DNA from: Trypanosoma brucei
Taxonomy: Eukaryota
Length of the DNA stretch: 64,000 nucleotides
Direction of reading: 5' to 3'
NCBI GenBank assembly: GCA_000002445.1
Contig: CH464491.1
Location: forward strand, 4,768,001-4,832,000
Made by a program: the position numbers. Positions within the stretch are counted from its first letter, which is position 1. Every line of letters starts with the position of its first letter. This document shows positions 45,401 to 48,400 of the stretch, piece by piece.

Positions 45401-48400
45401 AAAGTAAAAACATTGTTTTCCCGCTCTTCTTTTCACTCAATACAGGAAGGGAAGGTACCAACTATTTATATATGCCTAAAATACACTTGAAGAAGACTAG
45501 GATAGGAGTGTGGTTGAGTTTGTCTTTTCTTCTTATAAGTTTTAGTCTGGCACGTGACTGTACGCTGGTGGACGATTATTACGGCAAAAATGTTCCTGAG
45601 TCCGTTTGCTATCTCAGCTGCCTTTCGAATGCACTGAACAAATTGTACAACGATGGAGAAGAGAAACTATTTGTAAATGAGGAAGTATACGCAGATGCAT
45701 CTCGTATATTGGATGACATGGAAGGGGAAACAGCTGAATGTGTTAAATACCTTAGTGTTATCAGCGGTGTAATGGAAGGGAAACATGATAAATTGGAAAA
45801 ACTTATATCTTACGGAAATGAAATGGGAGACCTTGTAGCCAAGGTGGGTGGATTATTCGCAGATGTAAATGAAAGTGTAAGGGCAATGAGGGAAGTATTG
45901 CCATCTACTCTCATAACAGCAAATAAATACTACACGGCTATTTCTGAGATTGTTAGGACAGTTTGGGACGATGTTAAGGCGGTGAAGAGCGACGATGAGG
46001 AAGTCTTACAGTGTAGAAACGGAAAAATTATAAGTACAGGGGAGTTTTCAGTCAAGTGTAGCGCCCATACGTGTCCACTTGGAGTCAATGTGACAGAGAG
46101 TACCCTTAAAAAGTACAAGGATGGCTGCCTTGAAATAAATGTTATGACTGAATCTGGTCAGGTAAGCAAGTGCTTTAATTTACCAAGAAATAACTTGTAT
46201 ATAAGCGGTGCAAGAATTAATTCGAGTGGAGTGTTGGAATGGTCTCAAAATGATTCCGCTTTTTTTCGACTTATAGTCAAAGTTCAGGACATCTTCGCAC
46301 CCCTCATCGCACCTTTTTCAGCCGGGAAACCGCCCTCTGTACTTCTTACAAAGATGACAAATATCACTTCCCTTTACTCTCACTTTAACAAAGTTCACAA
46401 CAACTTTACTTCGCTGCTGCGCGATACCAATATCACTGTGAATGCGGACAATACTAATACTAATTCTACCATTTGACAGATATGTTTAGATACATTTTCT
46501 CCTGTTTACTAATGTTCTACTGATGATTTTGCATACATGCTTTTGTGCGAGTTCGCACGGGTACACGTACTTAACAATTTTTGTTGTTATTGGCATGCCA
46601 TGTTTTCATGAAAAAAATCTGTTCTAAACCTTTTGTAGTGTAAGTCTAATTACGCCTCGAACAATGGAATACATGCTATTCATCTGTGTGCCAAGTAAGA
46701 CATCTTTCTGGTAGTTTACCTTTCATAGCTTTTCTTTTATCGTAGGAGTTGAAAAACATGTAGGGAATGAGGGTGAAGTACAGGCGAGGATAGCGATTAC
46801 TCAGTTGCCGCGTTGCGATGTTGGATCTGGGGAACGCGACATAGGTGTGATTCGCCAGTTGTCGCCCTTTACTAAATTTTGTAGGCGCACCACCGTTTCT
46901 TTTCTCTTGTTTGTATCTGCCTCAGCTATTCTTAGGGTTTCTGCTGATTCTGAAAGTTTGTCTATCCAGTTTTCTGTTTTCACAGCGGCTGCTGCCTTGT
47001 TTGCCGCCAGCTCTGTGATGTCAACGCACCCTTCGTTGGCTGCCAAGCCACAATTGTCAGCCGTTGGTTTTGTGCCGAGGTAAACTAAAGCGCCGCTGAA
47101 CGTTTTTTCGTCTTTTTGTTGTCGCATGTTTGCTGTTTTTGTGTCTTTGCTGCGCTTGTTTCTTTTGCAAACCTGACTCTTGTGCTAATGCTGCCGCTAC
47201 TGCGCAGGTGTCTGCCTATAGGAGCTTTTGTTCCGGGCCGTCAGAGCCTGGTTTTATGTGCAGCTCCTCAAGTTTTTTCAGTAACGCCGGTGACTAAGCG
47301 CCCGCAACGTCTCCGAACAAACCTTTGATTATCCTGGTAAGTTTTGTCGTTTCTGTAACGTCCTTGTTGCCGACAGGTTCCTTGATTGCATCTGCTAACC
47401 CCGCTGCTGGCGCCTCCGTATTGATGATACTCTTGATGTCGGCAGTTGTTGTAAATGCCGGTGCCGCCGTCTCCGCAGTTACCGTATCTAGGTCGGTGAG
47501 GGTGGACTTGTGTTGCTTGACGCCTTCGAGTTCTCCTATTTTGCTGCCCCAGTTTCTGTCGCCGGCTAACTCGCTAGTCGATGTTCTACACAAACCAGCA
47601 CCGAATCTGATGGCACCGTGTGGTGGCTGCCCTTGTAAAAATTTGATGCTGTGGACCGTTTTGAAGGCGCAGTCGGCCCCCGTTTGTGTGTTTGCCGTTG
47701 CAAAATTTCCCTGTGTATTGGTGAGCTCAGGCGGGCTCCTGCAGTCGCCCATATGTCCAGCTACGGCGGCTGCACCTCCCGCAATTAAGATGTAGCTGTT
47801 GGCTGTGTCGGTGTCGTCATTCTGTTTCCCCTGGCGATGCCGGCCACCTCAACGTGGTGCCAGGGTCCAGTACCCCGTATCATCAGTGGAAGCCAAGAGC
47901 CAGCAGAGTTCCTTTCATGGGGAACACTGCTTTGCTCCGGCTACGGCATCATACAGCACAGGGATCAGCAGCGTCTTGCTGGGACACCGTCTTTCATTTG
48001 TCGGTCCCTGGGCACGTGCCAGTGTGCCATCAGCAGTATCATCCGCACTAAGATGCTGCTGTCCGGTGATGTGGACCTCCAAAAAAGGATTGCTAATTGA
48101 CATCTTCGGGAGAGTCCGGGGTGGGGGGCTTCTCGCCCCATCTGCTGTATTCCGTTCAACTGCGGAGCTACAACAAAAATTATGGAGAGTGTGTTGGGAT
48201 GAATAAAAAAGGGAGACTCTGCCACAGTCGCCAGACCGATAGCATCTCAGGGCTCTACGGTGATGGCTGATGGCCGCGCCAGTGGGGGGAAACTCTCACG
48301 AAGGCACGAAGAAAATTTCAAAAAAAAAATTGCATCTATAATACGTTATTGTTGTGTTTTTTTACTGCAACTAAACGTTTTGCGTCTATCCATGTCCAAT

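Follow-up and report, generated by a model that had tools for sequence, protein, structure and literature searches.

An intact ESAG1-family gene within a subtelomeric VSG array of Trypanosoma brucei chromosome 11

What kind of gene stays open within a run of broken VSG genes, and could it still serve the cell from there? This question is raised by a 64,000-nucleotide stretch of Trypanosoma brucei DNA (contig CH464491.1 of assembly GCA_000002445.1, positions 4,768,001 to 4,832,000; hereafter, the window), in which an open reading frame (ORF) of 334 codons lies at 45472-46476 on the plus strand. An earlier note, made from the sequence alone, took the ORF for an intact gene of a surface or secreted glycoprotein and proposed it as a stage-regulated effector. 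It named ESAG1, ESAG9 and ESAG2 as candidate families and stated that it could not place the gene. We find that the gene is a known member of the ESAG1 family, and that public databases and the literature already cover the gene, the family and the expression pattern. We are confident that it is best explained as an intact ESAG1 paralogue outside the expression sites (a 'gene related to ESAG1', GRESAG1), located at the 3' end of an 11-kb block that runs from a VSG-related (VR) gene to ESAG1. The case also indicates that a sequence-only reading can single out an intact ESAG within a VSG array.

Identity of the reading frame

Translation of 45472-46476 yields 334 codons from an ATG start to a TGA stop with zero frame breaks, which bears out the earlier note. 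Its tally of cysteines and glycosylation sites also stood: the protein has nine Cys (residues 30, 46, 50, 90, 181, 196, 201, 219 and 234) and eight N-x-S/T sequons (residues 133, 206, 250, 260, 297, 311, 320 and 331), four of the latter within the final 38 residues, an Asn/Thr-rich tail. The GC content of the ORF is 40.3%, and 39.7% at third codon positions (GC3). The VSG-type ORFs of the window have higher values, 49-52% for GC and 46-53% for GC3. The compositional contrast with the GC-richer VSG ORFs was thus correctly noted, but relative to its immediate flanks (41% and 37% GC) or to the window as a whole (42% GC), the ORF is no richer in AT. This agreement with the flanks is the one feature that would suit a chance open frame within AT-rich DNA, a reading to which we give no credence. 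When the 10 kb around the gene were shuffled 200 times, the longest ATG-initiated ORF per shuffle had a mean of 108 codons and a maximum of 197; the protein matches the ESAG1 profile with an E value of 3.8e-113, and it is kept across T. brucei subspecies. The earlier note had named a chance ORF with neither homologues nor transcript as the outcome that would undo its reading; both ESAG1 homologues and a transcript signal were found.

The family assignment is unambiguous. Pfam PF03238 (ESAG1) matches residues 101-330 over profile positions 1-226 of 227, scoring 377 bits where the gathering cutoff is 27, and a Pfam search of the 334-aa protein at E <= 1 returned no other family. The protein is 100% identical to TREU927 XP_829771.1 (equivalent to EAN80659.1 and Q380X2), which is encoded on a 5.26-Mb contig (chromosome 11); the novelty implied by the inability to place it did not hold, as it was already in GenBank and UniProt. 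A protein search recovered 43 homologues, every one an ESAG1 from T. brucei subspecies or T. equiperdum. T. equiperdum SCU66510.1 differs from the window protein at a single residue, while the remaining 42 are 50-76% identical, with a chromosome 1 copy (P0002, 76%) as the closest paralogue. When 1.84 billion cluster representatives were searched exhaustively with a HMMER profile, four clusters were returned, all of them ESAG1. This fits a family restricted to the T. brucei group (Trypanozoon) and agrees with the published statement that homology to ESAG1 is confined to T. brucei (PMC3605285). The same paper describes ESAG1 as an orphan that may have a de novo origin inside the expression site.

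An ESAG9- or ESAG2-type protein, or some otherwise novel secreted effector of stumpy or metacyclic forms, would also carry a signal peptide and numerous sequons and lack a membrane anchor. On chromosome 1, in the cluster catalogued by Jensen et al. 2009 (PMC2771046), ESAG9 genes do have ESAG1 and VR genes as neighbours. We consider the chance of such an identity for the window gene negligible, as Pfam, the 43 homologues and the profile search of 1.84 billion representatives all point solely to ESAG1, and the published microarray signal peaks in slender rather than stumpy forms. No Pfam match to ESAG9 or ESAG2 was obtained, and none of the 43 homologues is named ESAG9. By these sequence comparisons, an assignment to either family is already refuted at the family level, whereas the ESAG1 option of the earlier note was right, given the full-length PF03238 match and the uniform naming of the homologues.

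The family searches also brought up a T. b. gambiense DAL972 protein of 146 aa (P0061, XP_011780785.1) that is annotated only as a 'T. brucei spp.-specific protein' and belongs to one of the four clusters. It matches positions 184-315 of the ESAG1 profile (E 3.5e-14) and is an unrecognised, divergent ESAG1 C-terminal fragment.

The chromosome 11 locus and its expression

The window ESAG1 is almost certainly Tb11.17.0002. We infer this because the adjoining 152-aa ORF on the minus strand is XP_829773.1 ('hypothetical protein Tb11.17.0001'), because a tblastn search found a single ESAG1 copy in the window, and because the coordinates agree. In Additional file 8 of Jensen et al. 2009 (PMC2771046), Tb11.17.0002 appears as an ESAG1 on chromosome 11 with its start at 4,813,472, in the class ESAG-ST (subtelomeric) and with 8 unique probes; with the ORF at 45,472, 4,813,472 - 45,472 + 1 = 4,768,001, the first position of the window and a value, 149 x 32,000 + 1, that suits a regular tiling of such stretches. 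In a literature search, the Tb11.17.000x identifiers, the accessions and the name GRESAG1 were absent from main texts, the identifier occurring only in the Jensen supplement. On chromosome 11 of TREU927, this locus is almost certainly part of the right-hand subtelomeric VSG array.

Several features separate this locus from an expression site, where ESAG1 would sit between ESAG11/ESAG2 and the 70-bp repeats, ahead of a telomeric VSG on its own strand. Tandem Repeats Finder detected no 70-bp repeat array in the window. The core motif of the 70-bp repeat, GAGTGTTGTGAGTGTG (matched with up to 3 mismatches), occurs 7 times in the window against 0.43 expected, and six of these are minus-strand sites that precede VSG ORFs of that strand. 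Downstream of ESAG1, there is neither a 70-bp core motif nor a plus-strand VSG. Because it is followed by neither 70-bp repeats nor a same-strand VSG, the window ESAG1 is, as judged from its sequence surroundings, not an expression-site copy. Jensen et al. 2009 likewise place Tb11.17.0002 among the subtelomeric, not the expression-site, genes (PMC2771046). Instead, the gene lies at the end of a plus-strand block of positive GC skew (approximately 17-46.5 kb) that converges on a minus-strand array; it terminates this block, since what follows it is a VSG-like remnant on the minus strand. The core-motif sites themselves are at 16306-16593, 52284, 58585-58674 and 62649, the seventh being the plus-strand site at 16578. 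At 16.3-16.6 kb, core motifs face each other, at the point where a minus-strand block switches to a plus-strand one.

The window copy can be compared with two sets of ESAG1 genes. It resembles the expression-site genes (221A ESG2_TRYBB and 117A) in family, length (323-334 aa), signal peptide, eight Cys, the sequons N133, N297 and N311, an Asn/Thr-rich tail ending in -NSTI, and a conserved 3' flank. It differs from them in being only 50-66% identical, in having a remodelled N-terminus that is six residues longer and an extra Cys (C90), and in the lack of 70-bp repeats and a same-strand VSG after it. The second set comprises chromosomal copies outside the expression sites, such as the TREU927 chromosome 1 cluster Tb927.1.4870/4910/5120/5200/5240 and XP_001219214.1; its nearest paralogue is a chromosome 1 copy. 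With the cluster it shares a VR gene upstream and a 'BF>>PF' expression pattern. It lies in a subtelomeric VSG array, however, not in an internal ESAG cluster, and its bloodstream mean (2487) is below that of most chromosome 1 copies (4549-9137).

Published microarray data show that the transcript signal is regulated (PMC2771046). For Tb11.17.0002, signals were 2545, 1229 and 1901 in cultured bloodstream forms, 4667, 3992 and 2712 in slender bloodstream forms, and 2480, 555 and 2303 in stumpy bloodstream forms, compared with 497, 396 and 288 in log-phase and 309, 265 and 493 in stationary-phase procyclic forms. The bloodstream mean of 2487 against a procyclic mean of 375 (a ratio of 6.6) earned the gene the label 'BF>>PF', with slender forms highest. 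The earlier note had proposed a stage-regulated gene and had advised looking for transcripts and peptides, especially in stumpy or metacyclic forms. Stage regulation stands at the mRNA level, but stumpy or metacyclic specificity does not, because the signal peaks in slender forms; a published transcript signal was found and peptides were not.

The flanks of the ORF carry putative processing signals. A polypyrimidine tract, TTGTTTTCCCGCTCTTCTTTTCACTC, at 45413-45438 is followed by a first AG at 45444-45445 (together 45413-45445, plus strand, as read from the sequence), and both align with those of a T. equiperdum paralogue (locus L002). The AG is the probable trans-splice acceptor, and its use would give a 5' untranslated region (UTR) of about 26 nt. 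On the other side, 46477-46860 (plus strand) is a conserved flank with approximately 70% identity to ESAG1 paralogues by blastn and MAFFT, and it is probably the 3' UTR. Homology continues for about 350 bp past the stop, ending between 46618 and 46859 depending on the locus compared (L002, L003, L004 or L005). Locus L002 lacks tandem repeats and is therefore not obviously an expression-site fragment.

The gene is also part of a larger segmental paralogue. Positions 35260-46638 (plus strand), comprising a VR-like gene, a spacer and ESAG1, are collinear with approximately 930.9-942 kb of T. b. equiperdum CM010672.1 (positions 4-11142 of locus L004). The blastn matches to this locus are at 35260-40407 (74%), 40898-41468, 43263-44935 and 45586-46638, all of them collinear and at 70-74% identity overall; matches at 39.2-40.5 kb are collinear with locus L003. 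The VR-like ORF itself (37763-38665, plus strand) encodes 300 aa; it matches Pfam VSG_B (E 1.4e-29) and shares 90% identity with 'VSG 1125.5249'. The ORF may be truncated, because its homologues, some of which are named 'VSG-related' in TREU927, are about 342 aa long.

The spacing from VR to ESAG1, about 7.6-7.7 kb, equals that from VR1 to Tb927.1.5120 on TREU927 chromosome 1, where a neighbourhood of VR, ESAG9, ESAG2, ESAG11 and ESAG1 is listed (Jensen et al. 2009; PMC2771046). Because the spacing is equal and ESAG9, ESAG2 and ESAG11 lie in between on chromosome 1, the spacer at 38.7-45.4 kb might, by analogy, hold relics of these three genes; a Pfam scan of a set of ORF fragments gave no match, with no ESAG9, ESAG2 or ESAG11 query sequences used. 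The 11-kb block from VR to ESAG1 would have been duplicated from, or would share ancestry with, the chromosomal ESAG clusters.

The predicted protein and its fold

The N-terminus has the properties of a signal peptide, as the earlier note had it. Residues 1-27 (45472-45552, plus strand) are predicted to be cleaved after SLA, a call made by rule from hydropathy and the residues at -3/-1. The segment reads MPKIHLKKTRIGVWLSLSFLLISFSLA, that is MPKIHLKKTRIG-VWLSLSFLLISFSLA, followed past the cleavage site by RD. It has a basic n-region, small residues at -3/-1, and the most hydrophobic 19-residue segment of the protein (residues 9-27, Kyte-Doolittle hydropathy (KD) 1.57). The predicted mature protein begins RDCTLVDDYYGK.

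No membrane-spanning or anchoring segment was detected by hydropathy. Outside the signal peptide, no KD segment exceeds 1.6, and the next-highest value, 1.35 at residues 262-285, is below the level of a transmembrane (TM) segment. The C-terminus, ...NADNTNTNSTI, is hydrophilic (KD of -0.53 over the last 20 residues; family range -0.82 to 0.62), and a hydrophobic C-terminus was found by KD in none of the 39 family members. The 'surface or secreted effector' of the earlier note is unsupported. The protein has neither a TM segment nor a glycosylphosphatidylinositol (GPI) signal, and tagged ESAG1 has been reported as not located at the surface.

Conservation was counted across a 39-sequence ESAG1 alignment (the window copy and 38 paralogues). 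C46, C50, C181, C196 and C201 are present in 39/39 members, C234 in 36/39, C30 in 34/39 and C219 in 33/39, and the window copy keeps all eight of these family Cys. Sequon N297 occurs in 38/39 members and N311 in 32/39, both being retained in the window copy, and N133 is common; N206, N250 and N260 are rare or specific to the window copy. Motifs such as VNEEVYANASRILDDMEG in the first two predicted helices are near-invariant across the family. The N-terminus departs from this pattern, with an n-region, MPKIHLKKTRIG, that is unique to the window copy and makes it six residues longer than the 38 paralogues. Because the ATG of the paralogues aligns to an upstream GGG in a different frame (three-sequence alignment), the window copy seems to have acquired a replacement start codon and n-region, an interpretation of moderate confidence.

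Comparison with two T. equiperdum paralogues gave a ratio of nonsynonymous to synonymous substitution rates (dN/dS) of 0.10-0.22, rough values given that dS is saturated, and on this basis the sequence comparison indicates purifying selection on the window copy. The locus is also nearly identical in T. equiperdum. A 3340-bp contig matches window positions 44515-47854 at 99.94% identity, both minus-strand downstream ORFs are also present, and the two ESAG1 genes differ by one non-synonymous and one synonymous change.

An AlphaFold2 model built from the 39-sequence alignment (mean predicted local distance difference test (pLDDT) 78; predicted template modelling score 0.69) has high-confidence helices at residues 41-100, 105-171 and 288-318. 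Helices A (41-100) and B (105-171) are encoded at 45592-45984 (plus strand), with pLDDT 86-98 over most of their length. They lead into a Cys-rich head (residues ~175-285; 45994-46326, plus strand) that contains three invariant Cys (C181, C196 and C201) and two mostly conserved ones (C219 and C234), and that is modelled as mixed strands and short helices at low to medium confidence (pLDDT 51-91). Helix C (288-318) and the Asn/Thr-rich tail (46333-46473, plus strand) carry sequons N297, N311, N320 and N331.

The closest structures found by Foldseek in the PDB were all of trypanosome proteins. The top three were T. congolense and T. brucei HpHbR, followed by ISG65, Tb427.07.360, the factor H receptor and GARP. 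The matches are weak, with a best E of 2.7e-3, none at E <= 0.001 and template modelling scores of 0.3-0.5. Elongated three-helix bundles are a common architecture of trypanosome surface receptors (PMC5268388), and the literature that we searched contained no report tying ESAG1 to a helical-bundle fold. Between ESAG1 and HpHbR (4e40/4wjg), GARP (2y44), the factor H receptor (6xz6), ISG65 (7pi6) or Tb427.07.360 (5vtl), sequence similarity is undetectable (6-12% identity), and membership of their superfamily is not established. Furthermore, these receptors are attached by a C-terminal GPI signal or a TM segment, and ESAG1 has neither. On the strength of the model, ESAG1 probably adopts an elongated three-helix bundle of the trypanosome surface-receptor type, without a membrane anchor. 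This predicted relationship is the sole mildly new item of the analysis, and it concerns the whole ESAG1 family rather than the window locus. If a structure confirmed the bundle, ESAG1 would join the trypanosome receptor scaffolds, and a search for its ligand would become sensible.

How secure, then, is the reading of the window gene as an intact, functional paralogue? It could instead be a dead relic, that is, a recent duplicate in a decaying array that is transcribed and makes no protein, its frame open only because a stop codon has not yet been acquired. The setting among fragmented VSGs and beside a RIME insertion would suit such a relic. So would the apparent loss of the canonical start (GGG, with a downstream, out-of-frame ATG in its place), the additional and unpaired C90, the dispensability of expression-site ESAG1 and the failure to find peptides for this copy. 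We nevertheless regard a relic as improbable. The window copy has diverged by 24% of residues from its nearest paralogue, yet all 334 codons remain open, and the eight Cys and the conserved sequons are kept. The dN/dS values are low, the replacement N-terminus is still a good predicted signal peptide, the T. equiperdum locus is conserved at 99.94% with only the two coding changes, and the mRNA signal is regulated, with bloodstream far above procyclic forms.

Some observations do weigh against the intact-paralogue reading and the role drawn from it. The equation with Tb11.17.0002 comes from locus-tag adjacency and coordinate arithmetic rather than from a direct table of sequences and identifiers. 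The microarray signal is modest, and it could include cross-hybridisation with other ESAG1 mRNAs despite the 'unique' probes; no peptide evidence for the window copy was found. The ninth Cys, C90, is unusual (2/39 members), and the N-terminus is remodelled. Parts of the head domain are poorly modelled (pLDDT 51-75), a search of PDB sequences with the ESAG1 profile gave nothing even at E <= 10, and an established function is lacking for every ESAG1.

Taking the gene as an intact ESAG1 paralogue, we can outline what its product may do. The signal peptide would be cleaved as the protein enters the endoplasmic reticulum, where it would be N-glycosylated, with N133, N297 and N311 as the family-conserved sites, and the eight conserved Cys could form up to four disulfides. 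The product would fold as an elongated three-helix bundle with a distal Cys-rich head. Because TM segment and GPI signal are absent, we have moderate confidence that the product would be soluble within the lumen of the secretory or endocytic system, or else held by a partner, and not integral at the surface. With similar confidence, the helical-bundle scaffold would be used for binding. The likeliest role of the window copy would be a redundant supply of ESAG1 activity in the bloodstream stage, whichever expression site is active. ESAG1 function that can be supplied from outside the expression sites complicates knockouts of the expression-site copies.

A bolder version of this idea is that ESAG1 belongs, as a very divergent member without an anchor, to the superfamily of three-helical-bundle receptors (HpHbR, GARP, ISG and VSG), and that array copies supply a soluble or partner-tethered ligand binder to the bloodstream stage independently of the expression site. 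We put this forward tentatively, as a proposal that is rather less likely to be right than wrong. If true, it would account for the missing phenotype after deletion of the expression-site copy, which has been reported to be dispensable.

Neighbouring VSG genes and retroelements

The surroundings of the gene only partly match the 'sea of pseudogenes' of the earlier note. Four neighbouring ORFs match Pfam VSG_B, and the minus-strand VSGs are preceded by 70-bp core motifs, but the remnant immediately downstream of ESAG1 has no Pfam VSG match of its own. This convergent, fragmented VSG-like remnant (46801-47752, minus strand) comprises ORFs at 47294-47752 (152 aa) and 46801-47127 (108 aa). The 152-aa ORF, 0.8 kb downstream of ESAG1, is 100% identical to a database protein (P0060) named 'VSG' in UniProt (Q380X0) and 'hypothetical protein Tb11.17.0001' at NCBI. 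The product of the 108-aa ORF has a precomputed weak VSG_B match in T. equiperdum. When the minus-strand frames downstream (with X for each stop) and ten flanking ORF fragments were scanned with Pfam, no significant family was returned, and the VSG ORFs of the window, compared by tblastn with 46.8-48.3 kb, matched nothing there. The VSG label of the remnant rests on the database names and the precomputed weak match.

A RIME-like retroposon of about 500 bp (47822-48330, plus strand) is inserted within the VSG remnant that adjoins ESAG1. It starts with CCTGGCGATGCCGGCCACCTCAACGTGGTGCCAGGGTCCAGTAC and ends with a run of 10 A. In T. b. equiperdum locus L005, its two halves have matches at 3102-3348 (95%) and 8109-8343 (92%), and the 5 kb between these sites is the distance that the two ends of an ingi element should show.

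The longest VSG_B ORF of the window (49172-50875, minus strand) encodes 567 aa if read from a GTG and 539 aa if read from its first ATG (MKFSKIAVALMAV...). It ends in ...NASARIHVSL and is probably an atypical or defective VSG, because this C-terminus lacks an obvious hydrophobic GPI-signal tail. At the far end of the plus-strand block, an ORF fragment at 17418-17846 (plus strand) matches the zinc-knuckle family zf-CCHC (E 2.7e-4) at the start of a stretch of strongly positive AT and GC skew. This stretch, at 17-22 kb, may be a degenerate retroelement.

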